64,000 bases of DNA from a phage (GCA_033286805.1 GCA_033286805.1_4727.1); one strand, 5' to 3'; counted from the stretch's first letter, positions 15,696 through 33,771 are shown. Program-made: numbers and translations. The notes: a model not told the origin generated them from the letters alone.

Positions 15696-16058
15696 TTAAA
15701 GCGCTCTGAAGAGTTCTGTAGCGTTCTCGTCACGTAAACAGGCTTCGTTCAACAATTCAGCTAACAGCTTCGACCGAACTTCAACAAATGTCCTGAGGCG
15801 ATGCTCCCATTCTAAACGGATAGTGTACGTATTATCCAGGTTTTTGTAATCAACGACAGATACCGAGCAGCGGGGTTCACGTTTGTTCACAGCACTCCAA
15901 ACATCACGGATAACCGTCACGCCTTTCTTGGTGCATGTAAACGTTAAAATACAGCGGTTATTCGCAGCTTCTTCACGGACGCCAACAAATTCACTTCGTA
16001 ACGATGAGACTTTGATCAGTCGGTCAATGGCGAGCGATAAACCGATACGTTGTTGCAT
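15696..16058 (-). CDS. small protein, tandem paralog family member
   Basis: Shares motif NRCILTFTCTKKG with next gene (MRCVRLTFVCTTLGK); AGAGGGGA SD before ATG. Confidence 0.5.
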   Translation of the reverse strand: MQQRIGLSLAIDRLIKVSSLRSEFVGVREEAANNRCILTFTCTKKGVTVIRDVWSAVNKREPRCSVSVVDYKNLDNTYTIRLEWEHRLRTFVEVRSKLLAELLNEACLRDENATELFRAL

Positions 16059-16059
16059 A

Positions 16060-16488
16060 TCAAATCCCCTCTTTCAGAATCTCATTGAGGCTATTAGCAA
16101 CCGCATCTAACTTCGTGCTGATTACTTTTGGTGTCAATCCGTATATTTTCCAAACTATCTGTGGTTGACGTATTCCATTTGTCTGACAATACATCTCGAT
16201 CGACAACACCATATCGTCGGTGAACGTCGTGCTTTCGCAACAACGAAGATAGGCAGCCTCAAGCAACGTCTTTCCTAACGTGGTACACACAAAAGTCAAT
16301 CGAACGCAACGCATAGACAACGTGTTCGCATTCATTGATGCTGAGATCGGCTGAATGTGTTCACGCAGTTTTTCGTCTTCACGTAAAAGTGATAGGGTGC
16401 GATGTAAGCTGGTGTGCTGAGCAACCAGTGAATGATAAAGACCAACGCGCGCTGCAGTTACTGCTGATTCGGGCCATTTAATTTTCAT
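16060..16488 (-). CDS. small protein, tandem paralog family member
   Basis: Motif MRCVRLTFVCTTLGKT shared with 15696-16058. Confidence 0.5.
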   Translation of the reverse strand: MKIKWPESAVTAARVGLYHSLVAQHTSLHRTLSLLREDEKLREHIQPISASMNANTLSMRCVRLTFVCTTLGKTLLEAAYLRCCESTTFTDDMVLSIEMYCQTNGIRQPQIVWKIYGLTPKVISTKLDAVANSLNEILKEGI

Positions 16489-16503
16489 GTTCGATTCCTC
16501 GTA

Positions 16504-16947
16504 TTAACACTGTGTTCCATTCGATAAGCGGGTGGTATCAAAACGATCCAGTTGGTGTACAATGCTATTAGCAACACGATGCAAATAGTGTATTTTGTCC
16601 ATTCGTGAAATCGCAGAAATCGTCCAGCAAGCCTCTGACGTCCAATAGGTGCCGTCTTCACTAAGGCTAACGTTATAAACTAACTTCGTCATCACATTTC
16701 TCGCCTTATGCTCAGCAGACCAGAATATGTTTTCTAACACATCCTTCCCCGTTTGTGAAAACACGAACCCAAGCTTCACGTCGAAGTCGGATGCTTCAAG
16801 ATTAACGCAGTGAAGATGATTCTCTAACGGCGCAAAAGAGGCTAAACGTTCCAGCGCGTTTTGCAGTGTGGGATGATCGAGCTTTTCGAGATCATCCACA
16901 GGTTGTTCAGGTACAATCGCGATCGATTTACAGAATTTAATTTCCAT
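16504..16947 (-). CDS. small protein, possible distant paralog
   Basis: Weaker related motif KLGFVFSQTGKD; preceded by palindromic element 16978-16995. Confidence 0.5.
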   Translation of the reverse strand: MEIKFCKSIAIVPEQPVDDLEKLDHPTLQNALERLASFAPLENHLHCVNLEASDFDVKLGFVFSQTGKDVLENIFWSAEHKARNVMTKLVYNVSLSEDGTYWTSEACWTISAISRMDKIHYLHRVANSIVHQLDRFDTTRLSNGTQC

Positions 16948-16964
16948 GGTAGGTTCCTCTTGAT

Positions 16965-16995
16965 AGATGGTAGTAACGGGGATACCGCGGTATCC
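16965..16995 (-). promoter_or_regulatory. TAGTAA + GGATACC palindrome element, copy 1
   Basis: ggTAGTAAcGGGATACCgcGGTATCCC; 18-bp perfect palindrome at 16978-16995; ~31 nt upstream of ATG of 16504-16947(-). Confidence 0.45.
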
Positions 16996-17004
16996 CCTAA
17001 GTCT

Positions 17005-17475
17005 TTATAACACGCCCCAAGCCATATTGGGTACAGGCTCGTTACGTTCGATGTAATACATCAAGCGTTCTTTAAGTTTGGTTAACGCCTCAGCAACGAT
17101 GTTCTCTATGGCGACGACCTTTTCCATATTGCTCATCGTATCCTTCCACGTGAACCATTCGATCAAATTAACGGTGTGTAAGACCTTGTTATCGTCGGTC
17201 ATAACCTGGGTATTTTCACGACGATCGCGGGTTGTATACAACGGCGTTTGTATATTCGTTTTAATACGTGTCCAAAGCTCTTCCAGGAACTCACTCGATC
17301 GACTATCTGCCGTGACGATAAGCTCACTACGTACTGATTGTTCTCCTCGCTTTTCAATAACAAATAAACCATCGTAATCGATGTTCATCAATTTACGGAG
17401 GTTATCATTGCTATTCCAGTCTTTTACAACGGCAGGAAGTCGGCTATTGTAACCTTCAGGCAATCTCTCAATCAT
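17005..17475 (-). CDS. hypothetical protein
   Basis: ORF on dominant strand; overlaps next gene by 8 nt. Confidence 0.5.
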   Translation of the reverse strand: MIERLPEGYNSRLPAVVKDWNSNDNLRKLMNIDYDGLFVIEKRGEQSVRSELIVTADSRSSEFLEELWTRIKTNIQTPLYTTRDRRENTQVMTDDNKVLHTVNLIEWFTWKDTMSNMEKVVAIENIVAEALTKLKERLMYYIERNEPVPNMAWGVL

Positions 17476-17905
17476 CGGTTTCTGCTCCTATATCACGTTT
17501 AAGGTCGGCCACCAGTTTTTCATAATGGTCTTTTATTACATTGGCAATAACGAATTGCACTTTTCTCACCAGCTGCTCATTGGCATCACTGAACGTAAGA
17601 TGCTCACGCACTTCAACCGGACGTGATACACCGCCGATATCGTAGACTTTGTTCGATGTACGGCGAGCAATCACTGGAAGCGGTTCCACGGCGGCCAGTG
17701 CAGTACAGATTTCCGTAACGAGTTCTTGAATGCTGCTTCTGCCTTCGATAATAACAGAACAGCGATAGACATCTACCTCGTTAAGCTGTTCAACGACATC
17801 AGCCTTGATTTTGAAATTTCCAATAAGCGAGCTCACCAAAGTGCTATGCCAGTTGTTCACCACCCCGACCAACAGCGGATGATTCTCAAGATCTCTTCTA
17901 TTCAT
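17468..17905 (-). CDS. hypothetical protein
   Basis: ORF on dominant strand; preceded by hairpin 17944-17966. Confidence 0.5.
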   Translation of the reverse strand: MNRRDLENHPLLVGVVNNWHSTLVSSLIGNFKIKADVVEQLNEVDVYRCSVIIEGRSSIQELVTEICTALAAVEPLPVIARRTSNKVYDIGGVSRPVEVREHLTFSDANEQLVRKVQFVIANVIKDHYEKLVADLKRDIGAETDD

Positions 17906-17943
17906 CAGTTAGCTCCTAAATAGATCTACAACGAACTTTCGAT

Positions 17944-17966
17944 GGAAGGGAGTATGTTTCCCTTCC
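17944..17966 (-). terminator. GGAAGGGA/TCCCTTCC hairpin (H4)
   Basis: Perfect 8-bp stem, 7-nt loop; between minus genes 18081-18371 and 17468-17905. Confidence 0.5.
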
Positions 17967-18080
17967 TTGGGTTCGTTTATTGCGTTACGAAGCTTTACAG
18001 CTTGCGTAAACCACAACGGTTCCATTGTTGATTACCTCAACATCATCCTGGTCCGTTTGATCGCAAGTTTGGTGTCCGCA

Positions 18081-18371
18081 TTAACTCCCTCTGTGGTGCG
18101 AAAACAAAACATCTAACTGTTCCCGTTGTTCTTTTAAGCATGCAGGAAGCTGGTCTTCCCGTACCGTTCCGATTTCCAACGTGATGTACCAACGTTGTTC
18201 TGAGGCCTGCCATTGAAAACTGCTCTGTAACCGCAGGATGTTAGGATCACGTACCTTGTTTGCACTGTAACGGTTGAACCAATCCAGGTATTCTGCTTTC
18301 CCTTCCTCGTCGGCAACGTAACGCTGCACGCTGTTCTTCCCTTTGTTCTCGTATCCCGTTGCACGTATCAT
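18081..18371 (-). CDS. hypothetical protein
   Basis: Start set at ATG 18371 overlapping upstream stop (ATGA coupling). Confidence 0.45.
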   Translation of the reverse strand: MIRATGYENKGKNSVQRYVADEEGKAEYLDWFNRYSANKVRDPNILRLQSSFQWQASEQRWYITLEIGTVREDQLPACLKEQREQLDVLFSHHRGS

Positions 18372-20011: not shown

Positions 20012-20905
20012 TTAATCAGCGACGTTATAACCGAATACTGCTTTACCGTAGGTGTGAGTACCGTTAGCTAACGACAGCACCAGCACATGGTTGTACGTAG
20101 CGTTAACGCCCTTGTCAGTAGACTCGGTGGTAGCACCGTTATAGACAAAGGTAGCCGTTTGCAGATTGGCTTTCAGTTCATTGATGATATCATCACTTAC
20201 GCCGGTCTGCTCTTTGATCAGGGTGGTCAGGTTACCTGCTAAGCTTGCATCGATATTTACTTCGTTGCCAGTAATAGCTTGTAAACCTGGAGCGTAAGTA
20301 CTGAAGTCTAACGGATAGGTTAACAGACGTGCTGACGTTTTGGTACCATCGCCTTCATCAACGTAGGTTAAGTTACCCAGGTTGGTAACCTTGATGATGT
20401 TAGCCAGATCCAGCGTGGTGTTATAAACTTTAACTTGAACAGAGCCATACCACGCCAACGAATCTTCTTTGGCTTCCAGGGTGATCGTCTGGATACCTGA
20501 CTGATCAAAGGTAACCTGAGTAGCTAACGTTTCGGCTTTGATGTCTTTCGTTTTATCCAGGAACTTCTCACCGGAAGGCGTGATCATACCGTAGCGTTGA
20601 GCTACAAGGTCAACCACATCACCGATGGTGGTGTTCGCCTCAACGTTAACACGTACAGCGATCTTCTGGAACCACTTAGCCAGATCCAGACGATGGTAGG
20701 TGACATCGCGGTTATTGAAGTAAGGGGTACCTTCACCAGGACTAAGTGTTAAAGTTGCTTCTGGAGCAGAAGGATTCTTTTCTTTAAGGACGTATTTAAG
20801 GTCGGTGTATTTAAAGTTGGCACCAGTGTCGGCGTTGAGCTGGTTAATCTCATCAACGATAAGTTGCCAAGGTGTTTTTAAAGTAAGCGATACTTGAGCT
20901 GTCAT
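20012..20905 (-). CDS. abundant virion protein, paralog family member A
   Basis: Strong codon bias; shares YxNRxDL / LAWYGSV-type blocks with 21048, 31966, 33788, 34650 genes; followed by hairpin 19964-19995. Confidence 0.7.
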   Translation of the reverse strand: MTAQVSLTLKTPWQLIVDEINQLNADTGANFKYTDLKYVLKEKNPSAPEATLTLSPGEGTPYFNNRDVTYHRLDLAKWFQKIAVRVNVEANTTIGDVVDLVAQRYGMITPSGEKFLDKTKDIKAETLATQVTFDQSGIQTITLEAKEDSLAWYGSVQVKVYNTTLDLANIIKVTNLGNLTYVDEGDGTKTSARLLTYPLDFSTYAPGLQAITGNEVNIDASLAGNLTTLIKEQTGVSDDIINELKANLQTATFVYNGATTESTDKGVNATYNHVLVLSLANGTHTYGKAVFGYNVAD

Positions 20906-21047
20906 TTTCTACCTCTATGGTTGTTACATCACTCTCAAAAGATGTAAGTGTTTACAGAAATAAGTATATTTTATATTAAATGTGAATAATATGGAGAACG
21001 ACTCCGAATCTCCTTTTCGACCATCAAAAATCAGAGGACACACAATC

Positions 21048-21590
21048 ATGGCCTTAGACTTTAACAAAGCAGCGAAATCCCTTCTGCTTGATCTTATCAA
21101 CACCAAAGCAACCCGTGCACTGGCCGAACAAGAACTGCAGTTCGGTACCCCGGGGGCATCTTCCGAACATGAAAAGAACACCGTTATTCAGCTGGACGCT
21201 GCGCCTGAAGCAGAAAACCTGCAGGGTAGTCAGCAGTTCTACTACGATCGTCTGGCTCTGTCCGAAGTTTTCGCTGATGTAACCGGCGACGTTACTTTCG
21301 AACTGCCGCACGGTACCGACAGCATCCAGGCTTCTGAACTGGTAAGCAAGCTGGTCACCAAATTCGGCCTGGCTTCCCTGAACGGTGAAATCAAAGAAGA
21401 AACCTTCCAGCTGTCTGCTGGTACTGTTGGTCAGGTAACTCTGAGTGCGATCGATAATGGTCTGGTATATACCGGCACTCTGCAGGTTGCTCTGACCTAT
21501 GCAGCAGCACCGAAAGACCAACTGGCAACTGTTCTGGCGGATAACGTAGCTGATGGCTTCGTGAAACCGACCGTTAGCGTTGTTGGCTAA
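21048..21590 (+). CDS. abundant virion protein, paralog family member B
   Basis: ATG 21048 with GAGGA SD; strong codon bias; blocks QQFYYDRLAL ... LVYTGTLQV. Confidence 0.7.
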   Translation: MALDFNKAAKSLLLDLINTKATRALAEQELQFGTPGASSEHEKNTVIQLDAAPEAENLQGSQQFYYDRLALSEVFADVTGDVTFELPHGTDSIQASELVSKLVTKFGLASLNGEIKEETFQLSAGTVGQVTLSAIDNGLVYTGTLQVALTYAAAPKDQLATVLADNVADGFVKPTVSVVG

Positions 21591-21643: not shown

Positions 21644-21792
21644 TCTACAATTTGGTTGTAACAATCTGCGTGGTTGCACGCTTATCTTTCTCATTGAGCG
21701 CTTCGTGTGAAGCGTGGTGTTGAAAGGGTTGTGGATCTCCTCAAGCGGCCAGGGACCCAGACCAACCTGAATAAACACGAACACCTGTTAAG

Positions 21793-21825
21793 CCCCTCCT
21801 CATCCGTTATTGGGTGAGGAGGGGT
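21793..21825. terminator. CCTCC/GGAGG-type hairpin (H6, divergent)
   Basis: cccctcctca-tcc-gttat-tgg-gtgaggagggg; between 21048-21590(+) and endolysin 21888-22523(-). Confidence 0.55.
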
Positions 21826-21887
21826 CTTATACGTCTTTATGCGTTCCGTTCGTTCTGGAGCGTTTTAGGACGGTTTACTGCAAGGTT

Positions 21888-22523
21888 TTATTCAACACTG
21901 AAACCGTTCAAACAGATAGCTTCGTAACGCTTACGTTCACGACGTTTACGCGCCTGCCAACCGTAAATGAACTTCTCGTCTTTCTCACGACGTTCAGCTA
22001 ATTCGATGTAATAGGTGCTCTGCATGTCCAGCATCGCATCGATGAGATAATCCTTACCAGTTGCGCCACGCTTAGCGATGTAGGCATCAAGAGCTGCCAG
22101 TGATTTGGGACCCATTGCACCATCAGCATCAATATCTTTCCAGTAAGTTTGACGGTTGTTCATGACGTTCAGGTAACGCTGAAGGTTCTTAACCGCAACC
22201 GTTTTACCTGCATTGATACCCAGGTCAAAGAGACGGTCAGCCAAGAACACAGAACGTTTCATGACTTCGTCAAGCTTCATCTTATCCCAGAAGTGGGTCT
22301 TGTAGATAAAGAACGCCATTTCCGTGGTAAGGTTACGCATGTTACCGTCCCACCCGAATTTCGTTTTCAGCGTGGTTTTGTACTGATCCGCAAGCGCTTT
22401 CGTAATGCCGTGGTTTGTACATTTTCCGCTGTCGTCTGGGTCATCAACATACCCGCCTTCAACATCGGTTTTGTCGCGAATGATGAATTCGCAGGTAAAA
22501 TCTTTTTCAGTAATCTTAGCCAT
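21888..22523 (-). CDS. endolysin, GH108 N-acetylmuramidase-like with C-terminal peptidoglycan-binding region
   Basis: N-terminal motif EGGYVDDPDDSGKCTNHGIT matches GH108 signature EGGYvndp.DpGG.TkyGIT; GAGGAG SD 6 nt before ATG 22523. Confidence 0.8.
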   Translation of the reverse strand: MAKITEKDFTCEFIIRDKTDVEGGYVDDPDDSGKCTNHGITKALADQYKTTLKTKFGWDGNMRNLTTEMAFFIYKTHFWDKMKLDEVMKRSVFLADRLFDLGINAGKTVAVKNLQRYLNVMNNRQTYWKDIDADGAMGPKSLAALDAYIAKRGATGKDYLIDAMLDMQSTYYIELAERREKDEKFIYGWQARKRRERKRYEAICLNGFSVE

Positions 22524-22649: not shown

Positions 22650-24698
22650 TCAAATACCTTTGGTTCCCTTCACGTGATGTGCGATTTCTTCAACCATTGC
22701 ACGCAGGGCACGAAGCTGTTGGTCGTGTTCGTACCAACCGCCTAACAGAACCCCGCTATACACCATGGTGTCAAGACTTAACAGTCCTTTATCTGATACG
22801 TTGATCATTTCAGGGAACTGTTCTTGAACACGCTGTGCGATAACACCGATCTTCTCGACATCAGGATCGTAGTTGTGACGGAAACGGGCAAGCCCGCTGC
22901 GCGCCATTTCACGTAAACGTTCACTGAGAGATTCCGGATGATCTTTCAGATAACGAATGTCGTGTTTACTGCGTTCATCCGAGCGGATGTATGCGTTAGG
23001 AACATCGATGTTACTGTTGAAGTACAGCGCACTACCACCACCTGCAGAGTTCCCCCAATAGAAGCGTGTGATCTCACCGCCGCCATTCTCCGTGATGATG
23101 ACATGTTTACCTAAACGCGTACCACCATTACCATCAACGAAGACCAGTTTGTTTCCGCTGTAAGAACCCCAGAACAAGCGTGTATCGATGATGTGTGTTG
23201 CGGCGAGACGGGCGTTACGTGGTGTAGAATACACGGTGTTAACATCTTGCTGTGCATGCGCATCGGAAGCGATCCCGTAGTTCTGTACGTTACCCAACCC
23301 TACCTGCGCTTTTGTAACAGCATGAGGGTTATCCCGACGGTTGGCGTGAGCGTTAACCAGATCACCCGCTAATTTCTGAATTGCCCAGTTGGTAGACTGT
23401 GGTGTCATGTAACGGTTCGTTGCAGAACCACCTTGCGCTTCAGCTTGGTTAGCGGTTGGGTAGTTCTCAACACTTCCTAACCCTACTTGTGCTTTAGACA
23501 CTTGGTGTGGGTTATTCTTATCGGCGATGTGTGCATTAAGCGGAACTAACGCAAAGGTCTCAATGGACGCTTTGGTTGTGTTCGGTGCCATTAATCGGTT
23601 AGCTGCAACACCAGCACGCGCTTCTTCTTCAGAAGCCATTGGGTAGTCTTGCACATTCCCTAACCCAACCTGTGCTTTGGTCACCCTGTGTGGGTTGTTA
23701 TAATCGGCTTTATGCGCATTAAGCGGAATCAATGCGAACTGTTCAATCGATGCAACGGTACGTAGCGGCGTCATGAAACGGTTGTTCGCTGTTCCGGCTT
23801 TCGCCTCATCATCCGAAGCGGTCGGGAAGTTATCAACGTTCCCAAGGTTAACCTGTGCTTTGGTGACACTGTGTGGGTTATCCCGACGGTTAGCATGCGC
23901 GTCGACTAGATCGCCCGCCAGTTTAGCAATCGCCCAGCCAACCGTTTGTGCGGTCATGTAACGGTCAGGTGCGGTACCGGCTTCTGCCTCCGCCTTGTTT
24001 GCGGTAGGATAGTTCTGTACGTTACCTAGTCCGACTTGGGCTTTTGTTACTTCGTGTGGGTTATCGGTACGGTTAGCGTGAGCGTAATGCAGATCGGTTA
24101 GATCTTTATCCGCCGCTTGCATGTCTTTGCGTAGCTGATCGATTGCCGCCCAGAGACGGTTATCGGACGCAGCATCACCGATGAGTATTGCGGCTTTTAA
24201 CGAATAGATCGCTAAGCAAAGATGTTCGGTACCGTAAATAGCACTAACGTGGTGGATGTGTGGTTCAGGCGGATAGAGTTCCGGTTTGTTCTTGATGTCA
24301 TCCCAGTTGATCGGACGATCGTCAAGTTTGAGTTCTTCGATAGCCTGATATAACGCGTCAATAAGACTTACGTAAACACCACCGATGATACGATAGTCGT
24401 TAATTAACGTCCCCTCGATATCATCGTTGATAATGGCGATGGCTGCACAGATTTCTTTACCCGCGTAAAGCGTAGCGTCCTGATACAAGAAGATAGGTTT
24501 GTAGTCCACGCCTCGCACCAGTGTCTTACCGGTAAGCTTTTCAGTGATGACCAGACTTTCGGTGAAGAACGGTCCGCCATCAAGGGCGTAACATTTATTC
24601 TCGGTTCGTGGAACGGTATGTTCTTCGCCAACGATGTGGTTGCTGGCGAGTGTACCGGTCCAGTCCTCGGGGTACTTCAGGGTAATTGGTGTCGACAT
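22650..24698 (-). CDS. tail fibre with C-terminal S74-type intramolecular chaperone domain
   Basis: Five ~57-aa repeats (H.ANRRDNPH.VTKAQVGLGNV.NY...EA..G...NRYMTP); C-terminal SDERSKHDI motif (SDxRxK) typical of autoproteolytic fibre chaperone domains. Confidence 0.85.
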   Translation of the reverse strand: MSTPITLKYPEDWTGTLASNHIVGEEHTVPRTENKCYALDGGPFFTESLVITEKLTGKTLVRGVDYKPIFLYQDATLYAGKEICAAIAIINDDIEGTLINDYRIIGGVYVSLIDALYQAIEELKLDDRPINWDDIKNKPELYPPEPHIHHVSAIYGTEHLCLAIYSLKAAILIGDAASDNRLWAAIDQLRKDMQAADKDLTDLHYAHANRTDNPHEVTKAQVGLGNVQNYPTANKAEAEAGTAPDRYMTAQTVGWAIAKLAGDLVDAHANRRDNPHSVTKAQVNLGNVDNFPTASDDEAKAGTANNRFMTPLRTVASIEQFALIPLNAHKADYNNPHRVTKAQVGLGNVQDYPMASEEEARAGVAANRLMAPNTTKASIETFALVPLNAHIADKNNPHQVSKAQVGLGSVENYPTANQAEAQGGSATNRYMTPQSTNWAIQKLAGDLVNAHANRRDNPHAVTKAQVGLGNVQNYGIASDAHAQQDVNTVYSTPRNARLAATHIIDTRLFWGSYSGNKLVFVDGNGGTRLGKHVIITENGGGEITRFYWGNSAGGGSALYFNSNIDVPNAYIRSDERSKHDIRYLKDHPESLSERLREMARSGLARFRHNYDPDVEKIGVIAQRVQEQFPEMINVSDKGLLSLDTMVYSGVLLGGWYEHDQQLRALRAMVEEIAHHVKGTKGI
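23214..24086 (-). repeat. coding tandem repeats (5 x ~57 aa, NPH-VTKAQVGLGNV core) in fibre gene
   Basis: Repeat units read from translation of 22650-24698. Confidence 0.8.
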
Positions 24699-24711
24699 AA
24701 CCTGGAGGTCC

Positions 24712-27306
24712 TTATAACGTGACTGTACCTAATTTGGTTGTCTTATTGAGATTAATGACAGAGATCTGGGTATCGCTGGTCGTAATCGTTCCGATATTAA
24801 CGCGCTGTCCTTTATCATCTTCTTGCTTGTAGATGGTTAACTCCAGCTCTAACTGGTCGCCATTAGGAACAACGGAAACGTACCATGTTTTATTACCTGG
24901 TGAACTATTATAGTCTTTTAGGTTATAATGGCCTTTAGGTAAGGTCATGACCTTACCGGCAAACAAGCAAGTGATGTCTTCGTTGATGTAGATATCGTAA
25001 CCGGAAGCAGCAACGACCGTAGAAACCATGTAGACATGTTTGACGGTACCTGCGAGGTATTCGGCTACGCTTGGTCCGTATGCTCTGAATACCTGTCCAC
25101 CATTGGATAAACGGTACGCTTCCCCAAGGTCGACGTACCCCAGACCCCATACCGGATGGACGTTGTAACGACGTCCGCTGCTGGCCAAATACTCATAAAG
25201 GTCATCTACCGATAACCCAACCCACGCACCACTGGCGTTCTTAGCACCACGGAATTGAAAATCGTTTGCGTTTCCTGGAGTAGCAACGCGCACGGACATC
25301 GCCCCGGCGATTAACCAACCATCAGCGCATTTACGATACCCTAATGGTCCCCACGCCCCCAGAGTGTTGTCAATGTTATTGATTTGGTCCCGAAGCGTGT
25401 AAGTTACCGTTGTGACGACCCCCGTTACGGTAATGTTCCCTTCCCGAGCGCTGGTCGTCACTTCAGACGTCATGATAGCCGCCTTCCTGGAGACAGGATC
25501 GTACACCGATATGAACATCAAGCAGGGGGCCCCTGTGGACGCCGGAGGAACCACGATAGAGCCGCGTATAACGGAGTATCTCTCAAGCTTCGGCGACGTG
25601 TAGGTATCCCAACAAAGTTTGGCCGCTCTGTCGAGTTCTGCCTGCGTGATGCTTATCGATGCCCCCTTTAAGGCTAACGTATCAGGGTCGACCTCAACCC
25701 TGCTGCTTAATCTCCCTTCCTGTAGCCAACTGCCAGTCACTATCGTCTGGTCGTCGCTCATGTGAATTGTCGCGAAACGTTCGCTCACTGAACCGCCTAC
25801 GTGGACGCGACTGGTTGGCGGGAATCCCATCACATCGACCACGCTGTTCTTATAGCGATAACTCAAATCCCAATCAGCGGTTATTAACCGCTTTTCGAAA
25901 TTGCTCTGACCCCCTGGGATGCGGGATAAGACATAGACCTTGTTCTTCGCCGTGAAGCCAACGAAGCCGTGTGGGCCACAGGACCCAACAACGCGGTCCT
26001 TGATGTTAATCCAGTTCCCCACCTCGTACGCGGATATTGGGGTGAGTTTTGCAAGTTCGTCGAAGACATTACCAGCGTAGTCACCAATGCGATACGATCG
26101 AACCATCGGCGAGGCCAGGTTATCATTCACACAGCTGGTAACCAGACCGTCCTCGCGAATGACCATGTTCCCGGTAAGGTTGGCCCCACCCCATGCCCAG
26201 AATCCGTCTTTATAATCACGGTCACGAGTTGACATCGTACAAGGGCCACGAAAGGACACCGAACCATCGGAGTTCACTTGTAATGACGGCGTTCCAGCAT
26301 TGGGACTTAATGTCCATTGCTTCGTATCCAGGTTCAAATCGACGTACCAGATCGTTGTCCCCTGGTCGGCGATATTCACGGTACTGTTAGTGTACCATGC
26401 CGTCGTGCAGTAGATTCGCGCAATGTTACCTTTTACAACAGCGTAATTTCTAATACCCGCACGAATAGGGACAAGCGTCGTTAATTGACTAGGATACGCT
26501 GTATGGTTTAACACTTCCCAGAAAAGAATATGGTCGAGGTTGGTTTTCGTCGTTCCCTCAAAAATCTTTCCACTAAACCCGGTTTCTTTGGTGAACTGTA
26601 CAGCCGCACCATTTTTAATGTCCGATAACATACAGGTATGTACATCGAGCCCGTTTTTCCCTTCATACGCCCACCAGACTAACAGGTACACTTTGTTTTT
26701 GTAGACGAACGTACTACAGCGCGCCATGCTGTCGGTAATACCCTCTACCGACCCGGTACACATGGCGGCGACATGCTTCTCTACGTTGAATGTGCCGTTA
26801 GTCAGAACGATGTAGGGCTGTGTGTTCTCGTCGTTTGCGTCCATCGCGACACCCATCATCACGCCGTGGTTATGACACCAGACCGATTGTGGGATTTTAG
26901 GTAGTGCTGTAGGCCTATACTGGCGACTGGTACCTATGGCGGTATCGAGCAGCCCTTCACCATTGTTTTTACAGATAGCGTAATACACCCCGTTTTTCAT
27001 GCTGTTGGATGCCGAGCGAAGGATGGAAACACTCCCGTCTGCTTCCTGACAGATTCCGTAGGTACGACGTTCGGTCATGGCTATCGCGCCATCAGCTGAC
27101 CCTTCGATGGCGAGAGGGAAGTAACTTTGATCGCCAATTTGTTCGATATCGGTTACGTCAATATCAATGTACTTTTCCATCTCGGTGTTGAACTCTGCGG
27201 TGCTGTACGCGCCGAGATCGCCAGCCTTTAACCCTGTTGGATTGCTTCGACTAGCGATACGCTCAGTAACGCTGGTCACCAGTTCGCTAAATTTTTTCAT
27301 TGCCAT
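24712..27306 (-). CDS. putative receptor-binding protein / tail fibre or spike (864 aa)
   Basis: Inside fibre cassette; N-terminus MAMKKFSEL...ASRSNP shares anchor motif with the two small downstream proteins. Confidence 0.6.
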   Translation of the reverse strand: MAMKKFSELVTSVTERIASRSNPTGLKAGDLGAYSTAEFNTEMEKYIDIDVTDIEQIGDQSYFPLAIEGSADGAIAMTERRTYGICQEADGSVSILRSASNSMKNGVYYAICKNNGEGLLDTAIGTSRQYRPTALPKIPQSVWCHNHGVMMGVAMDANDENTQPYIVLTNGTFNVEKHVAAMCTGSVEGITDSMARCSTFVYKNKVYLLVWWAYEGKNGLDVHTCMLSDIKNGAAVQFTKETGFSGKIFEGTTKTNLDHILFWEVLNHTAYPSQLTTLVPIRAGIRNYAVVKGNIARIYCTTAWYTNSTVNIADQGTTIWYVDLNLDTKQWTLSPNAGTPSLQVNSDGSVSFRGPCTMSTRDRDYKDGFWAWGGANLTGNMVIREDGLVTSCVNDNLASPMVRSYRIGDYAGNVFDELAKLTPISAYEVGNWINIKDRVVGSCGPHGFVGFTAKNKVYVLSRIPGGQSNFEKRLITADWDLSYRYKNSVVDVMGFPPTSRVHVGGSVSERFATIHMSDDQTIVTGSWLQEGRLSSRVEVDPDTLALKGASISITQAELDRAAKLCWDTYTSPKLERYSVIRGSIVVPPASTGAPCLMFISVYDPVSRKAAIMTSEVTTSAREGNITVTGVVTTVTYTLRDQINNIDNTLGAWGPLGYRKCADGWLIAGAMSVRVATPGNANDFQFRGAKNASGAWVGLSVDDLYEYLASSGRRYNVHPVWGLGYVDLGEAYRLSNGGQVFRAYGPSVAEYLAGTVKHVYMVSTVVAASGYDIYINEDITCLFAGKVMTLPKGHYNLKDYNSSPGNKTWYVSVVPNGDQLELELTIYKQEDDKGQRVNIGTITTSDTQISVINLNKTTKLGTVTL

Positions 27307-27318
27307 TATTCACCTCAG

Positions 27319-27804
27319 TTAAATCGGCGAATCAGGTAATTGGCCATCGACAATCTCGGTAGTGGCCACTTTACGTGTCGCAGCAAGATGTGCTGTGCCC
27401 TGAACTTTGTTCCAGGTACCGATACGCATCACGTTTTTATAGCTGCTGTTACTGTCGCTCAATGTGTAAACAAAACCGTTATCCGTGACAGCAAGATAGA
27501 TCCAACCGGTTGATGCGCTAACACCAGAAACATCCAACGTGGTCGCGGGCACCGTTCCTGTTATCGTGTTGTATTCCGCTTCACCTTGGCCGATGCTGAT
27601 CCTCCCGTTGTTGTAGCTGGCTGCTGGAATTATTTTATTTCGGCTGAAGAAAAGGAACGGAAGATAACGTTGTGTGACAAGAGGTGTAAGTTTAGGAGCC
27701 ACTTCTGTCTTGGCGTACACGTTTGTCTGCGTCGTTGTTACTGAATGAGGATTCTTCTTGGCCAGGTAGGCTCCCCATTCAGAAAGCAATGTCGATAACT
27801 TCAT
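27319..27804 (-). CDS. small tail-fibre-associated protein
   Basis: N-terminus MKLSTLLSEWGAYLAKKNPHSVTTTQ carries a single copy of the fibre repeat core. Confidence 0.5.
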   Translation of the reverse strand: MKLSTLLSEWGAYLAKKNPHSVTTTQTNVYAKTEVAPKLTPLVTQRYLPFLFFSRNKIIPAASYNNGRISIGQGEAEYNTITGTVPATTLDVSGVSASTGWIYLAVTDNGFVYTLSDSNSSYKNVMRIGTWNKVQGTAHLAATRKVATTEIVDGQLPDSPI

Positions 27805-27808
27805 ACGA

Positions 27809-28324
27809 CTACCCCATATAACGTTTTTGGCCGAGGATAAAGACCTTGTTAAGGACCACCGAGGTAATGCCTGACGCGTTGCAACTCACCTGCCCAACAC
27901 GAATCGCTGTTGATGAATCAGCCCCAGCACTACTGTTCCAACTCCAGCCGACCGACCCACCTTTCTGATGAATAAACAGATATCCGGTTTTGTTTGCCCA
28001 ATCGGAAGTAAGATTTTTGATGTCTAACGTTCCTTTCGCCAGAATATAGTCGGTACCAGCGATCATGACGGGGATTTCAGGATACGAGATTACCGTACCG
28101 CTGGCGGTAACGTTGCTGATGCGATCACTACGAATATCAGTACAATCACCGAAATACGCTACGGGGAGTATCCCCTTAGGGAGCTTTTTGCCGATTCTCG
28201 TATCGATAGTGTTTTTATCGGGTGCGTCGATTTGCGCTGCAGTGACTTGGTTAGGGTTATCCTTCCTTGCGTACCATGTCGTCATGCGAGCACCCAATTC
28301 ACTCATTTTTGTGCCCATTTTCAC
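27809..28324 (-). CDS. small tail-fibre-associated protein
   Basis: N-terminus MKMGTKMSELGARMTTWYARKDNPNQVTAAQ resembles fibre repeat core and N-termini of 24712 and 27319 genes. Confidence 0.5.
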   Translation of the reverse strand: MKMGTKMSELGARMTTWYARKDNPNQVTAAQIDAPDKNTIDTRIGKKLPKGILPVAYFGDCTDIRSDRISNVTASGTVISYPEIPVMIAGTDYILAKGTLDIKNLTSDWANKTGYLFIHQKGGSVGWSWNSSAGADSSTAIRVGQVSCNASGITSVVLNKVFILGQKRYMG

Positions 28325-28375
28325 ATCCTATCGAAAAATAAAAAGAAGGAAAGGTGGGTAGAACCCACCCATCCG

Positions 28376-30529
28376 TTATAACGTTTCGAAGTCGGTTGCT
28401 TTGATAACCGCGTTGAAGTTGGCAAGGAATTCCTTAAGCAATGCTTGGAAGACATCACGGAACGCTGTGTTCGTCTGCAAGCTGGTTAAATAATCGTTCT
28501 TAAGGTAATCGCTCAGCTTACCGATCTTCTGCATCTTCTCGCCGTCTTGGTTCTCTCCAGGTTCTTGGCTGTTGATGTTAACCCATTTGATCCCTTCGAG
28601 ATCACCATCGGCAAGGAAGTTGGCGGGTGTCTCATCGTCGTTCAGGATTTTAATCGTATCACTGGATTCAATGCCACCGTAAGCTTCCAGAAGCTGGTTG
28701 ACTGTTAGCGTGTTGGTGTTGATTGAACCATTGACACCATCAATACCGATGCCTGCACCTGTGATGGATGTCGCCGAAAGATCGATCGGTCCGGTTAACT
28801 TACCACCGTTGATCGGTAACGCACCAACTTGCTCGGCGGTGTGTGTATGGTTAGCTAACGCCGCAAACGCCACGATAGACTTATACGTCGAATACGGCGT
28901 CATATACGCTGATTGGTTGGTGTTGTCAGCCGCTTCAGTATCGGTAGCGACATTAAAGTTCTGCACGTTGCTGAGACCGACCTGCGCCTTCGTTACTTCA
29001 TGCGGATTGCTCTTATTGACAACGTGTGCTGCAAAACCATCACCAGCTAAAGCAGTGATTGCCGCTTTTGTCGCAGCCGGTGTCATATAGCGGTTGGTTG
29101 CTTCACCCGTTTGCGCCTCTTCGTCGGAAGCAACAGGATAGTTCTCAACGCTCCCCAAACCAACCTGAGATTTTGTTACTTGGTGTGGGTTTTCGGTATT
29201 CGCGATGTGACTACTGAACCCTTGACCAGCCAGTTGCTCGATTGCGTAACGAACAAGTATTGGCGTCATGTACTTGTTGTTAACTTGACCATCGATAGCT
29301 TCTTGGGTGGTGGCAACCCCGAAGTTTTGCACGCTCCCCAACCCAACCTGCGCTTTCGTAACAGCGTGGGGGTTATTGGTGTTACCGATGTGATCGGTAA
29401 CCGTTGGGGTGATTAATCCTGCGATAGCGGCTGCCGTGGTCGCAGGGGTCATGTATTTATCGTTAGCAACACCCGCAGCAGCTTCTACGTTAGATGCTAC
29501 ACCGTAGTTCAATACATTTCCTAACCCAACTTGAGCTTTGGTTACCCCGTGGGGGTTGTTCTTGTCTCCGGTATGGGTTGTCAACGTAGCGTTAACGTTA
29601 TCGATACGCGTGCTTAAGCCATCGGTGATTGCTTTGATTGCGGCTCGTACACCCACTGGTGTCGTGTACAGATTGGTGGCCGTACCGGTAATGGTTGCAT
29701 TACTATCGGCTGTACCGTAGTTCTCAACGTTTCCGAGTCCCACCTGGGCTTTCGTTACCTTGTGTGGGTTGTTATAGTTGCTGATGTGTGCAGCAGCACT
29801 ATCACCACTCAGGTTAGCGATCATCTTACGCGTCATCGCCAACGTCATGTACAGATTTTCACCGATGGTTTCCAGATCGCTCTCGGTCGCCGTTGTGAAG
29901 TTCTGAACATTCCCCAATCCAACTTGAGCCTTGGTTACCCCATGGGGGTTATCGCGACGATTCTCGTGCTGCAGCAATGCGGTCATTGCTTTATTGAACC
30001 CTTCTTCAAGCGGTTCTTTCAATGATTCGATTGCGGCCACCACATCGTCCCACGTCATTGTGTCGGTTTCGACATTATGTTGGTGGTTGATTGGTGGGAA
30101 TACGGAAGGAACGTCGGCAACCTTTTCCCAGAACGTAACGCGGGGATCGTAAAGGTTGTTGGCTAAAACGTTAAGAATTTGTTGTTGATCAAGTGTAAAC
30201 TCACCCCCCAGTGAATAGTAGTTCAGTTGCAACTGTCCACTGAATGCGGTGTCCAACAGCATGATGGAACCGTATAATTCCAGGCCGGTCAGCGCAGCCA
30301 TGGCACGGAAGGGGTGAGTGCATAAAAAGTCAACGCCTTCTTCCAGATACGCGTTTGTTTCAGGGTTGTAGATCTTTAACCCATTACGAAAATATGGCGC
30401 GTATTTAGGAACGAGAAAGTTAAATCCGGTCCCCGTGGAAGGACGGACAGTGACGAGTTCTTCTGGAACCCATGCGCCATCCAAATTCCCCTGCGGGTTA
30501 TACGGAAGGCGTTTAATTTCATCTGTCAT
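28376..30529 (-). CDS. tail fibre (717 aa) with six NPH-VTKAQVGLGNV repeats
   Basis: N-terminal domain paralogous to that of 22650-24698 (L.YP, GVD[YF], PP..H.H); six ~57-aa repeats; C-terminal ALPINGGKLTGP fibre-tip-like motif. Confidence 0.8.
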   Translation of the reverse strand: MTDEIKRLPYNPQGNLDGAWVPEELVTVRPSTGTGFNFLVPKYAPYFRNGLKIYNPETNAYLEEGVDFLCTHPFRAMAALTGLELYGSIMLLDTAFSGQLQLNYYSLGGEFTLDQQQILNVLANNLYDPRVTFWEKVADVPSVFPPINHQHNVETDTMTWDDVVAAIESLKEPLEEGFNKAMTALLQHENRRDNPHGVTKAQVGLGNVQNFTTATESDLETIGENLYMTLAMTRKMIANLSGDSAAAHISNYNNPHKVTKAQVGLGNVENYGTADSNATITGTATNLYTTPVGVRAAIKAITDGLSTRIDNVNATLTTHTGDKNNPHGVTKAQVGLGNVLNYGVASNVEAAAGVANDKYMTPATTAAAIAGLITPTVTDHIGNTNNPHAVTKAQVGLGSVQNFGVATTQEAIDGQVNNKYMTPILVRYAIEQLAGQGFSSHIANTENPHQVTKSQVGLGSVENYPVASDEEAQTGEATNRYMTPAATKAAITALAGDGFAAHVVNKSNPHEVTKAQVGLSNVQNFNVATDTEAADNTNQSAYMTPYSTYKSIVAFAALANHTHTAEQVGALPINGGKLTGPIDLSATSITGAGIGIDGVNGSINTNTLTVNQLLEAYGGIESSDTIKILNDDETPANFLADGDLEGIKWVNINSQEPGENQDGEKMQKIGKLSDYLKNDYLTSLQTNTAFRDVFQALLKEFLANFNAVIKATDFETL
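28834..29971 (-). repeat. coding tandem repeats (6 x ~57 aa, NPH-VTKAQVGLGNV core) in fibre gene
   Basis: Repeat units read from translation of 28376-30529. Confidence 0.8.
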
Positions 30530-30633: not shown

Positions 30634-31914
30634 ATGTATACATTGGTAAAAACTTACGGATTACCCGTAGGTTCTGGCACGGCCTGGACAGCGCTTGAGG
30701 CGGGTGAAAGTGTCCTGAGTACGTTGTTCTCAACGTATCAAAAACTCAAGATCCAGGTCCATGAAAGCTATGCTGACCAGCAACAAGTTATTGATCTGTA
30801 CGCGTTCCAATCCGAGCTTCAAAACAGCAGTGATACGCTCAATGCGTGGCTGAAGGCGAAATCGGACGCACATACTAACCTCCGTGGACAGCCAGGCGAG
30901 CTGTCGATTAAAACCCACAAGCTTTATTGTCACGACGTTATTACAGTAGGCTTTCTCCCTAAAGTCGGTAATAGCGGCTATCATCCGAGCAACGCGATCC
31001 CTGAGTCGGAACGCACTGATATCCTGTTGACGAAAGCGAATACGAACTACGAAAATATCGGTAAGCATTGCTTGTTTACCGTAGGTGGTTATGTTCATCC
31101 TCACGTTTACGGTAAAGACGTCGGTGTCTATATCCAGGGCGGGTTCAAGACGGCACAGCGTAGCCAAGAAAACGATATCGGCATGATTGATTTTAGCCGT
31201 ATCGGGAGTTTGGAAATCCATGCCATCACAGAAGAGATGATTGCTGATTCCACGAAGCTCTTGCCGTATAAGGACGAGATGTACTTGCGGTTACCGCGCA
31301 AGGTCGCCGAAGATGAAACCGTCGCGCTGGTGTTCGGGGGATATTTACATCTTCTTGACGATTGTTACACGATCGTTAGTGACACGACAGCAAAAATAAA
31401 CTGCATTAACATGTTTCTTTATGAAAGATACTTCCGTTCCCGCAAATACCTTGATCTAACGTCTCTTGGTATTCTGTTGAACGAAGAAGACCCGCAGTCC
31501 GATATTGTTGCCAATCGTTTATTGTCCGATAAAGCATTAAAAGCGTGGGTGACGCATCCTTGCAGTTTCTGGGTGTATATCAAAGCAACATCGATTCAGG
31601 TTACGCAAGAACCTTTACCACGAAGTGGTGTACCAGGACAATATTTCTTAGGTAAGAAACCGGAAGGACTGATTCGAGCCGATCTTGGTGAGTTACCGGC
31701 TTACGTGCAGACCTATGAAAAACCGTTATGGGTACTTCACTCGCGCTGGGGACTTCGTAAGAACATGTTGTTTGAAAACACATTGTACAAGCACACCCGC
31801 GTTAAGCGGCTTAACGATACGCCTTATCTTCACCAGGTCTGGTTGGAAACGCACGCGACGTTGCAGACAGTACACAAGCTCGAATTGATCGATTCCAGTC
31901 AGAAAAACAAATAA
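30634..31914 (+). CDS. hypothetical protein (426 aa)
   Basis: ATG 30634 with AAGGGGG SD; plus-strand island between fibre cassette and paralog genes; ends before hairpin 31925-31956. Confidence 0.6.
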   Translation: MYTLVKTYGLPVGSGTAWTALEAGESVLSTLFSTYQKLKIQVHESYADQQQVIDLYAFQSELQNSSDTLNAWLKAKSDAHTNLRGQPGELSIKTHKLYCHDVITVGFLPKVGNSGYHPSNAIPESERTDILLTKANTNYENIGKHCLFTVGGYVHPHVYGKDVGVYIQGGFKTAQRSQENDIGMIDFSRIGSLEIHAITEEMIADSTKLLPYKDEMYLRLPRKVAEDETVALVFGGYLHLLDDCYTIVSDTTAKINCINMFLYERYFRSRKYLDLTSLGILLNEEDPQSDIVANRLLSDKALKAWVTHPCSFWVYIKATSIQVTQEPLPRSGVPGQYFLGKKPEGLIRADLGELPAYVQTYEKPLWVLHSRWGLRKNMLFENTLYKHTRVKRLNDTPYLHQVWLETHATLQTVHKLELIDSSQKNK

Positions 31915-31965: not shown

Positions 31966-32871
31966 TTATGCTACATATAAGGTTAGATAACCATCGATGA
32001 GCGTATTCATCACACTGAGTTGGAGTACGACAGCTTTACTAACATCCGTACGTACACCAAACGGTAGTGTTTTGAATTGCTCTGGATCGGCTATTACTTG
32101 CGCATTCTGCAAGTTGAGCGGTCCAGGCATTGCTGACAATACCCAGCGATCGTTGACCATAAGGCCGTCGATCTCTTCAGAGAGGCCCAATTGCAGTGCG
32201 TTCATTTCTGCGATTAGTGCCTCCGATTGCGCATCACCTGAGGTTAACGTATACCCATCGGTAAGTGATGCCAGAACACCAGCAGATACGAACCAGTTGT
32301 ACGAAACAATAGCGCCTGGGAGTTTACTGCTATCTCGATCGATGATATAATTCAACCCAGCCAACATATTGTTGCGAACGAGGTTGTTGAGGTCATTACG
32401 TCCTGAGGTCAACTCAACAAGTAACTGACCAACCCATACTTGGTTACCGGGTTTAGGTGTTATCACAACCTGTATCGGTGACTTGGACTTATCCAGATCC
32501 GCGTCGACAATCTCGGTTTTGTTGAGAAGGATACCGTACGTCGATGCTAAGACAGGTAGGATCTCAGAGACCTTGGTTAATGCATCTAAGGTTTCGATCT
32601 CGATGGGCCAGTGGTGCTGTCCGCCAGACCAAGTACCCAGTTTACCAAGATCGATGCGGTTATAATAGATGTCGACAGAGTTCACCAACCCTGAACCCGG
32701 TTGGGGATGCACGGTTAACTTGCTGTTACGCTTGTACCCTGTGCTTTCAGAAGCCTCACCGATAACCAGTTTATCCAGCGTTACGCCTCGAGCATCGAAA
32801 TCGCTATGCTTTCGAATCAGCCGAAAGAGGATTTCTTTCGATTCTAACCCCAGGATTTCACTGTACTCCAT
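31966..32871 (-). CDS. virion protein, paralog family member C
   Basis: Blocks VDIYYNRIDLGKL ... STYGILL ... QVWVGQLLV shared with other family members. Confidence 0.65.
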   Translation of the reverse strand: MEYSEILGLESKEILFRLIRKHSDFDARGVTLDKLVIGEASESTGYKRNSKLTVHPQPGSGLVNSVDIYYNRIDLGKLGTWSGGQHHWPIEIETLDALTKVSEILPVLASTYGILLNKTEIVDADLDKSKSPIQVVITPKPGNQVWVGQLLVELTSGRNDLNNLVRNNMLAGLNYIIDRDSSKLPGAIVSYNWFVSAGVLASLTDGYTLTSGDAQSEALIAEMNALQLGLSEEIDGLMVNDRWVLSAMPGPLNLQNAQVIADPEQFKTLPFGVRTDVSKAVVLQLSVMNTLIDGYLTLYVA

Positions 32872-32886
32872 TTAACACCCCTTAGG

Positions 32887-33771
32887 TTACGGTAGGATTT
32901 CTGCGCCCGTCGGGCCTGCCTTACGAGCTTCCAACGCACCAAGGTCGTATTTCAGCGTCAGCGTATCGTTGGTGGTATAAAGGTTGTGGTAAGTCGAAAT
33001 CAGATCGGTAACCTGCGCGCCGACGATTTCGTTCATGTCGAAGGCCGAACCTTGACCATCATCGGCACGAACGATTTTATCGCCAGCAGAGACCATCCCA
33101 ATTTCAGAAATAACCGCGTACTCTTCACCACCTTCGGTGAGTTTAGCCACATTGAGATATTCGTTAATATCCCATGGCGTCCAAACCAAAGAGACTTTAC
33201 AGCTGTAGTCGTAGTACTCTCCGGTCGCTACCAGAATTCCGGTTGTTGGGATATCCGGTCGGGTGGGGTTGAGGTTAGCGTCGGTTGGGTGCCATTCGAT
33301 GGTCTGAGCGACGCCGTCGACGTATTTGGTATAACGCATGGAGCGGACAACGTTATCGAAATCGATGCGACGACCGTAATAACAGATATACTTTTTACCG
33401 CTTTCCAATGTCTCAATACGACGTAACCCAAATTTAGCGCGTTCGTCTGTGGTCAAATCGTTACCAACTTCACGCATCACGAACGGCTTGATCTTCCACG
33501 GTGAAAGATCGCTTGCTTCGTGAGCGATCGGCATCGAGGAAGGGATACCGTTAGCGTTGCGGATGAATTCATGACCTTGGTTGCCGATACAGAAGTAACG
33601 TACAGCAGGATTACCCTCGGGGTAAACCTTTGATTGAATCTGAAGCTTTTCATTCAAGGTGCTATGTTCTTCCCATGCGTGAGGAAGACCGAGCGTAAGG
33701 TTAGTTTGTACTTGACCGCCGATAATCGTACGGACGATACGATCGGTAGCACGGATTTGTGTAGAAGCCAT
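32887..33771 (-). CDS. hypothetical structural protein (294 aa)
   Basis: ORF embedded between paralog family genes. Confidence 0.6.
   Translation of the reverse strand: MASTQIRATDRIVRTIIGGQVQTNLTLGLPHAWEEHSTLNEKLQIQSKVYPEGNPAVRYFCIGNQGHEFIRNANGIPSSMPIAHEASDLSPWKIKPFVMREVGNDLTTDERAKFGLRRIETLESGKKYICYYGRRIDFDNVVRSMRYTKYVDGVAQTIEWHPTDANLNPTRPDIPTTGILVATGEYYDYSCKVSLVWTPWDINEYLNVAKLTEGGEEYAVISEIGMVSAGDKIVRADDGQGSAFDMNEIVGAQVTDLISTYHNLYTTNDTLTLKYDLGALEARKAGPTGAEILP

Follow-up and report, generated by a model that had tools for sequence, protein, structure and literature searches.

We analysed a 64,000-nucleotide stretch of phage DNA (GCA_033286805.1; "the window") and found that its positions 22650-30529 hold an operon of tail-fibre genes from a jumbo phage of the Goslar-like, nucleus-forming kind (Chimalliviridae); the operon is the counterpart of gp130-gp135 of phage phiKZ. 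The explanation that we lean towards, if only by a little, is that two baseplate-anchored fibres flank one sub-assembly of paralogous proteins that lack the anchor, and that a predicted beta-propeller body in the largest of these proteins is an exchangeable glycan-binding module for host range. The DNA of the window is 94.7% identical to that of Escherichia phage Goslar (77% of the region aligns), and the cassette and its flanking genes correspond to Goslar gp24-gp30. An initial annotation, made from the sequence alone, had placed five open reading frames (ORFs) here, and all five are present on the minus strand with the positions and sizes that it gave (717, 171, 161, 864, and 682 amino acids (aa)), separated by gaps of 4-51 nucleotides (nt).

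We will refer to the 717-aa and 682-aa proteins as fibres A and B, and to the three proteins encoded between them as the middle proteins: the small paralogues s1 and s2, and the large paralogue. (The terms "half-repeat" and "shoulder" are explained below.) Percentages are protein identities to Goslar.

Plus strand, 30634-31914: homologue of Goslar gp30 and phiKZ gp130, 426 aa, divergently transcribed from the fibre operon.
Minus strand, 28376-30529: fibre A, 717 aa (gp29, 98.6%), with the anchor domain at aa 1-182 (29984-30529).
Minus strand, 28892-29995: shaft of fibre A, six 61-aa NPH repeats (aa 179-546).
Minus strand, 28379-28891: tip of fibre A, with no Pfam or PDB sequence match (aa 547-717).
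Minus strand, 27809-28324: s1, 171 aa from a GTG start codon (gp28, 91%), but probably 169 aa from the ATG at 28318.
Minus strand, 28154-28318: N-terminal half-repeat of s1 (helix, then NPN-VTAAQ).
Minus strand, 27815-28141: predicted shoulder-type beta-sandwich of s1 (aa 62-170).
Minus strand, 27319-27804: s2, 161 aa (gp27, 84%), with the same architecture as s1.
Minus strand, 24712-27306: large paralogue, 864 aa (gp26, 52%), with an N-terminal half-repeat at aa 1-56 (27139-27306).
Minus strand, 25048-27138: putatively inserted body of the large paralogue with the predicted beta-propeller (aa ~57-753).
Minus strand, ~25000-27085: segment of the large paralogue that is replaced relative to Goslar, from the nucleotide identity profile.
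Minus strand, 24715-25047: predicted shoulder-type C-terminal domain of the large paralogue (aa 754-864).
Minus strand, 22650-24698: fibre B, 682 aa (gp25, 99.6%), with the anchor domain at aa 3-178 (24165-24692).
Minus strand, 23220-24122: shaft of fibre B, five repeats (aa 193-493).
Minus strand, 22983-23219: tip of fibre B (aa 494-572).
Minus strand, 22653-22982: S74 intramolecular chaperone of fibre B (aa 573-682), with S573 and K578.

As proposed in the initial annotation, fibres A and B begin with domains that are paralogous to each other (24% identity over 131 aa, E = 7.5e-11) and have unrelated tips: their C-termini, compared with each other, gave no significant match. A hidden Markov model (HMM) of the N-terminal domain, built from the window and its relatives, matches four phiKZ proteins (gp131 at 3e-35, gp135 at 2.5e-34, gp134 at 2.6e-22, and gp133 at 8e-18), and BLASTP aligns fibre A with phiKZ gp131 (E = 1e-42). 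In the cryo-electron microscopy (cryo-EM) structure of phiKZ (Nat Commun 2026, PMC13250141), 12 fibres lie beneath gp130, and the base of each comprises six gp131-like domains and a six-helix bundle. Because the shared N-terminal domain is homologous to the gp131-like domain that was placed at this attachment site, we consider it to be a true baseplate anchor, as its original label implied. Furthermore, the 426-aa protein is homologous to phiKZ gp130 (BLASTP E = 3e-26 over ~340 aa). Synteny of the gp130 homologue extends across Goslar, PCH45, Special G, SPLA10, and phiKZ, and the gene is arranged divergently in phiKZ, Goslar, PCH45, and Special G alike. A tblastn search detected the anchor in 287 records from phages that belong to the phiKZ-like group. 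Within the Goslar-type genome, the anchor was found in gp25 and gp29 only, and a search of this genome turned up no further members of the cassette families.

The two loci are alike in gene order, with a divergent gp130 homologue, and in having the anchor, NPH repeats, and paralogues that share an N-terminus but differ at the C-terminus. phiKZ also has an anchor-less protein with a single repeat (gp132, 110 aa), and its main receptor candidate carries a beta-propeller. They differ in the number of anchored paralogues, which is four in phiKZ (with 2-3 repeats in each) and only two in the Goslar type (with 5-6), and in that the propeller is on the anchored gp131 in phiKZ but on an anchor-less protein here.

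The shafts contain five (fibre B) and six (fibre A) copies of the NPH-VTKAQVGLGNV repeat. These copy numbers are as first counted, but the period is 183 nt or 61 aa rather than about 57 aa, except for one spacing of 71 aa and one of 60. An HMM of the shaft repeat matches phiKZ gp131, gp133, gp134, and gp135, as well as the anchor-less gp132. Each shaft repeat also has a conserved histidine that precedes the one in NPH by 8 residues (H-x7-H), and one or both of these histidines are lost in the three anchor-less proteins. The pairs may mark metal sites on the axis of the shaft trimer, comparable to those in the tip of T4 gp37, that are absent from the single-repeat proteins.

Fibre B ends in an S74-type chaperone domain with the SDxRxK motif, which the initial annotation had recognised. 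Peptidase_S74 (PF13884) matches residues 573-631 with 26 bits (the Pfam cut-off is 22; E = 1.1e-5), and the motif S573-D-E-R-S-K578 is kept in the orthologues from Goslar, from the related locus L005, and from PCH45 (as SDIRVK). Fibre B would be folded by its C-terminal chaperone, which would then probably be cut off. Two chaperone-derived tryptic peptides of gp25 are absent among the Goslar peptides listed (16 entries there are from gp25), which is weakly consistent with cleavage. Endosialidase-type chaperones (K1F endoNF, T5 pb1, and S16 gp37) share the Ser...Lys spacing as SDxRxK and the position at the extreme C-terminus of a fibre; in contrast, the tip that precedes the chaperone in fibre B is only ~80 aa long, and cleavage here is a prediction. 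In the chaperone region, fibre B also has a weak sequence match to the C-terminus of S16 gp37 (6f45, E = 0.013). Otherwise, searches of PDB sequences with each of the two fibres, the tip of fibre A, the 864-aa protein, and a profile of 40 members of the small-protein family gave nothing (at E ≤ 10 for that profile) or chance matches, and at E ≤ 10 Pfam has no meaningful match for the anchor, the fibre A tip, the small proteins, or the large protein.

By profile comparison, the three middle proteins are paralogues. s1 and s2 are similar over their full length (hhalign probability 97.9%, E = 5.5e-13); the N-terminus of the 864-aa protein matches the N-termini of the small proteins (probability 97%); and, with a probability of 98.3%, its residues ~756-864 match the C-terminal domain of s1. 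Two of the three comprise the shoulder only and one has an inserted body, and together they form a conserved, translationally coupled set. Each begins with a helix followed by NP[NHT]-x-VT-x-x-Q, which is one diverged copy of the core of the shaft repeat. The profile of these N-termini aligns with columns 1-35 of the profile for the shaft repeat (probability 94.9%, E = 4e-8), while 20 column-shuffled controls reached at most 2.6%, which confirms the initial annotation on this point. The segment that the middle proteins and the shaft repeat have in common is a helix and an NPx turn, and we call it the half-repeat.

An AlphaFold2 model of the 171-aa protein (mean predicted local distance difference test score, pLDDT, 84.9) contains two helices and a beta-sandwich. 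In this model, the ~105-aa C-terminal sandwich and the helix that precedes it appear to be of the "shoulder" type of lactococcal receptor-binding proteins (RBPs) and TssK, which is a resemblance of fold and not family membership. The RBP of phage p2 is divided into shoulder, neck, and head, and SPP1 gp22 is similar to its shoulder. The sandwich differs from the shoulders of the p2 and 1358 RBPs, TssK, and SPP1 gp22 in several ways: there is no similarity to them at the sequence level, the domain is C-terminal or split by the body instead of N-terminal, it is preceded by a shaft repeat, and the virus is a jumbo myovirus. The N-terminal shoulder sandwich of TssK has been described as part of a trimer, which binds to a loop of TssG in the baseplate, and the same source likens this to RBP attachment in p2 and TP901-1. 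Analogy with these systems suggests that the middle proteins dock by a helical bundle, as in phiKZ, or by a shoulder-type grip, as in p2 and TssK, rather than by the strand mimicry that was first proposed.

Word-indexed homologue searches with the small proteins gave close relatives only, and the wider family came from an exhaustive profile search of representatives, which found 379 relatives; among them are dozens of small proteins (150-250 aa) as well as proteins of 850-1020 aa in which both ends match. Erwinia phage Special G, Aeromonas phage PS2, and Klebsiella phage Miami have the same C-terminal domain, with or without the body, fused as a tip to the anchor and one repeat. (The Erwinia Agricanvirus genes gp17-gp20 of Special G and RAY, like those of PS2 and Miami, encode the same domain families next to the gp130 homologue.) In contrast, Goslar-type phages, PCH45, SPLA10, and pEa_54 keep the modules in separate genes with the half-repeat only. 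In every split-type locus that we examined, the small paralogue adjoins the large one, with stop and start codons that overlap or are at most 13 nt apart. These loci were the Goslar type, L006/L007, PCH45, SPLA10 (twice), pEa_54, 121Q/PBECO4, and all five of five extra metagenomic loci; 121Q and PBECO4 have the pair and are not chimalliviruses. The gene order of the cassette is kept down to 33-40% protein identity. A search for related loci with the alignment of the large protein returned Goslar-like contigs only. A more distantly related Goslar-like lineage has Big_1/Invasin_D3 domains at the end of its fibre A homologue (L006 37-2433 and L019 11258-13654), and an extra small and large pair lies beyond the gp30 homologue (L019 6573-9837), so the number of modules per genome varies.

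In the 864-aa protein, a body of ~690 aa that contains the predicted beta-propeller sits between the half-repeat and the shoulder domain. The N-terminal segment is directly followed by the motif GDQSYFPLAIxGxADGA, which does not vary between alleles and which aligns with the small proteins where their sandwich begins; therefore, the body looks like an insertion into the shoulder fold. This body is the sole strongly diverged segment of the cassette relative to Goslar (~45% nucleotide identity versus ~97% in its flanks), and the breakpoints are at domain junctions. Nucleotide identity to Goslar along the cassette is as follows.

22700-25000: 95-100%, fibre B together with the large protein's C-terminal domain.
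25000-27085: 37-58%, large-protein residues ~75-768.
27086-27985: 77-83%, the large protein's N-terminus, the whole of s2, and the last part of s1.
Beyond 27985: 94-99%, the remainder of s1 and fibre A.

Relative to Goslar, the synonymous divergence (dS) is 0.08-0.20 for the fibres and gp30, 0.42 for s1, 1.3 for s2, and above 2 for the large protein. The ratio of nonsynonymous to synonymous divergence (dN/dS) is at most 0.21 for all of the genes, which indicates purifying selection; it is 0.07-0.21 for the middle genes, with s2 at 0.07. Close relatives carry at least four alleles of the body, of constant length (864-867 aa for the whole protein). Because these alleles swap between conserved shoulder parts, the unit of exchange is the body and not the fibre repeats. 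We also considered an invertible cassette or one diversified by a diversity-generating retroelement (DGR), by comparison with Mu Gin, P1 Cin, and DGRs. This was rejected for lack of supporting repeats: a scan found only short inverted repeats at chance level and no near-identical direct repeats, and all of the genes of the fibre operon are on one strand.

In genome-wide screens, the receptor of Goslar was the outer core of lipopolysaccharide (LPS), GluII. A sugar-binding propeller would fit such a receptor. The predicted fold of the body is of the kind seen in propeller lectins and glycosidases (sialidase, GH43, and GH130 types). An enzymatic activity of the body is not supported, and we infer that it binds sugar.

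The Goslar counterparts of all five proteins were detected by mass spectrometry of virions, and the initial annotation is supported in reading the locus as a tail-fibre or receptor-binding cassette. In purified virions, the sequence coverage of the middle proteins was 32-61%. The estimated copies per virion are ~87 for gp25 and ~75 for gp29 (the fibres), ~18 for gp30, and ~14.3 for gp28, ~13.8 for gp27, and ~12.8 for gp26 (the middle proteins). Each fibre is thus about 6-fold commoner than each middle protein, and there is ~0.7-0.8 copy of each middle protein per gp30. If the geometry of phiKZ holds (12 sites, 12 gp130, and six anchors per site), then each site would have three gp25, three gp29, and about one of each middle protein. 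A cryo-EM study of Goslar (2026) left the peripheral baseplate and the fibres unassigned and did not discuss gp26-gp28.

Putting these observations together, we propose that the gp131-type N-terminal domains fix fibres A and B beneath the gp130 homologue on the outer baseplate, and that each fibre then continues as a shaft of 61-aa repeats with its own tip. The small and large paralogues would assemble into one sub-complex through their common parts, and this sub-complex would ride on an anchored fibre base, where each of its proteins would be present about once per attachment site. The propeller body would be its exchangeable glycan-binding (LPS-core) module for host range.

Several observations weigh against this proposal. 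The structural basis is prediction of monomers, and the model of the 864-aa protein has low to moderate confidence in the N-terminal 80 residues and in the C-terminal domain. The propeller matches are only 4-12% identical in sequence, with no assignable catalytic residues; the four body alleles contain no Asp-box motifs, and the body has no Pfam family. The label-free copy numbers are good to about ±50% or worse (a spoke protein with 48 copies was estimated at 179). Phages differ in whether they have one or two small paralogues for each large one, so there is no single stoichiometry for the family. Because the shoulder domains of both the p2 RBP and TssK are homotrimeric, the middle proteins might form three separate homotrimers. 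Each of the two body alleles is found in assemblies labelled E. coli, Salmonella, and Shigella, and the allele does not simply track the genus of the host; we therefore rejected a simple link between the two. Finally, the C-terminal domains of phiKZ gp133-gp135 are not homologous to the shoulder-type domain (hhalign probability <1%). An equation of the middle proteins with these phiKZ proteins was rejected on the same grounds, the anchors and repeats being common to the two loci and the C-terminal domains unrelated.

A more specific form of our proposal, which we offer tentatively, is that the 169/171-aa, 161-aa, and 864-aa proteins form a 1:1:1 heterotrimer (2:1 in phages with a single small gene), with one propeller body per fibre site. 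The shoulder-only paralogues would then fill two of the three positions, giving an asymmetric, "monovalent" head, and the N-terminal helices would join those of one anchored fibre trimer in a phiKZ-like six-helix bundle, in place of the absent anchors.

The serious rival, which we rate as doubtful to the same degree as the heterotrimer, is that each middle protein forms its own homotrimer and is attached on its own to the outer baseplate or to a fibre. The virion would then have two shoulder-only mini-fibres and a trimeric propeller RBP, with about six trimers of each. The solved relatives with a shoulder fold (the p2 and 1358 RBPs and TssK) are all homotrimers, the same C-terminal domain is found on a separate anchored protein in Special G and PS2, and 13-14 copies are within error of 18. 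However, independent homotrimers would leave unexplained why a bodyless, shoulder-only protein always adjoins the large paralogue, often with overlapping codons. Also, the 6-fold excess of the fibres and the ratio to gp30 fit one copy per site better than three.

It is less likely that the small proteins are chaperones, that is, assembly or attachment factors of the 864-aa protein that stay bound to it like gp38 of T2 and S16 or the Mu-type factors. Their tight linkage to the large gene, their small size, and their equimolar presence in virions would be expected of such factors. But they are paralogues of both ends of the large protein and not of known chaperones, and the Pfam scan found no match to tail-fibre assembly chaperones (Caudo_TAP or gp38-like). 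Moreover, their genes are upstream of the large gene instead of downstream, and Goslar has a classical Caudo_TAP chaperone (gp89) elsewhere, beside the P1-S-like fibre gp90.

We regard as similarly improbable the model in the initial annotation, in which the middle proteins are three interchangeable receptor-binding modules that dock onto the shaft by strand mimicry, and near-identical repeat DNA in the two fibre genes drives the shuffling of domains. Its premise that the N-termini are homologous to the shaft repeat is correct, and the cassette is indeed a hot spot of recombination. But the 183-nt repeat units are just 37-68% identical (median 51%), with exact matches of at most 16-17 nt (16 nt for the longest between the fibre genes), which is too diverged for a substrate of shuffling, and the breakpoints are at the junctions of the body of the 864-aa protein and not in the fibre repeats. 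The substrate of recombination is instead formed by the conserved N- and C-terminal modules on either side of this body. Nor are the modules interchangeable: two of the three have nothing beyond the shoulder domain, the variable body is in the 864-aa protein only, and the paralogues are kept as a set. We also infer that a closed trimeric shaft would have no free strand position. Lastly, the idea that the anchor-less genes are silent or decaying cassettes that act only as donors for recombination, which could be raised because they lack the anchor of their fused homologues, is rejected: all three products are in purified virions, and the genes have intact ORFs, low dN/dS, and an order that persists in distant relatives.

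Another known arrangement is the branched system with multiple RBPs (TSP1-4 of CBA120, gp63.1 and gp66 of G7C, and gp10-gp12 of T4), in which RBPs without a baseplate anchor ride on an anchored protein. The Goslar-type cassette differs from these in that we detected no attachment domains like those of T4 gp10; the corresponding element here is the shaft half-repeat with the shoulder domain.

Other features of the operon are listed next.

Minus strand, 28352-28370: terminator-like hairpin between fibre A and s1, with an 8-bp stem, 5 G-C pairs, and a T-rich tail.
Minus strand, 21888-22523: muramidase with GH108 and PG_binding_3 domains (Pfam E = 2e-19 and 2e-18; Goslar gp24), the last gene of the operon.
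21780-21837: hairpin after the muramidase gene (inverted repeat I3); Goslar has an annotated terminator in the corresponding gap downstream of gp24.

The most likely start of s1 is the ATG at 28318, which gives 169 aa as in the annotation of Goslar and has AGGA 8 nt upstream. The hairpin at 28352-28370 was seen by a consensus scan only, and such sites are not more frequent in the region than in shuffled sequence; less read-through might reach the three middle genes because of it. This could help to explain why the middle proteins are ~6-fold less abundant, but fibre B, which is downstream, is abundant again. The muramidase gp24 is present at ~76 copies in Goslar virions, about equimolar with the fibres. 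This suggests that gp24 is not just a lysis enzyme but a wall hydrolase carried by the virion, perhaps in association with the fibres. A scan of the window found no tRNA genes and no Rfam matches at gathering thresholds.

Homologues of Goslar gp22 (20012-20905, minus strand), gp23 (20982-21590, plus strand), gp31 (31966-32871, minus strand), and gp32 (32887-33771, minus strand) flank the cassette. The homologues of gp22, gp23, and gp31 are DUF7941 proteins, for which the Goslar cryo-EM paper proposes a "fibre cloud", and gp32 is the spoke protein (DUF7208). The host-recognition genes are thus all clustered here. Goslar also encodes a separate system without the domain families studied here, at 98471-102861 of its record: the 1324-aa fibre gp90 and the chaperone gp89, next to DUF7941 genes. 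A second patch that diverges from Goslar, at 16000-18100, has 82% identity at 16000-17154 and is unaligned at ~17155-17950; it contains small hypothetical genes upstream of the gp22 homologue.

The exact 864-aa and 161-aa products are also encoded on contigs of ~235-247 kb in isolate assemblies labelled E. coli, Salmonella (Enteritidis, Anatum, Panama, and others), Shigella flexneri and Shigella sonnei, and Enterobacter hormaechei. Goslar-like jumbo phages are thus present as whole genomes in many surveillance assemblies, which could reflect a carrier state, pseudolysogeny, or contamination.

Goslar serves as the model of a nucleus-forming jumbo phage in E. coli, yet its gp26-gp28 still carry the annotation "hypothetical", and in the phiKZ atlas only the fibre bases were placed. 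Our analysis names a likely LPS-binding host-range protein and two partner proteins, and it offers candidates for the unassigned density whose copy numbers are consistent with it. The domain boundaries at which nature swaps the body (about aa 75 and 768 of the 864-aa protein) are a guide for engineering host range. The cassette also defines four widespread domain families for which Pfam lacks a model, namely the anchor, the 61-aa repeat, the C-terminal domain of shoulder type, and the body. If the predicted fold is right, then the shoulder of lactococcal RBPs and TssK would extend to the jumbo myoviruses.

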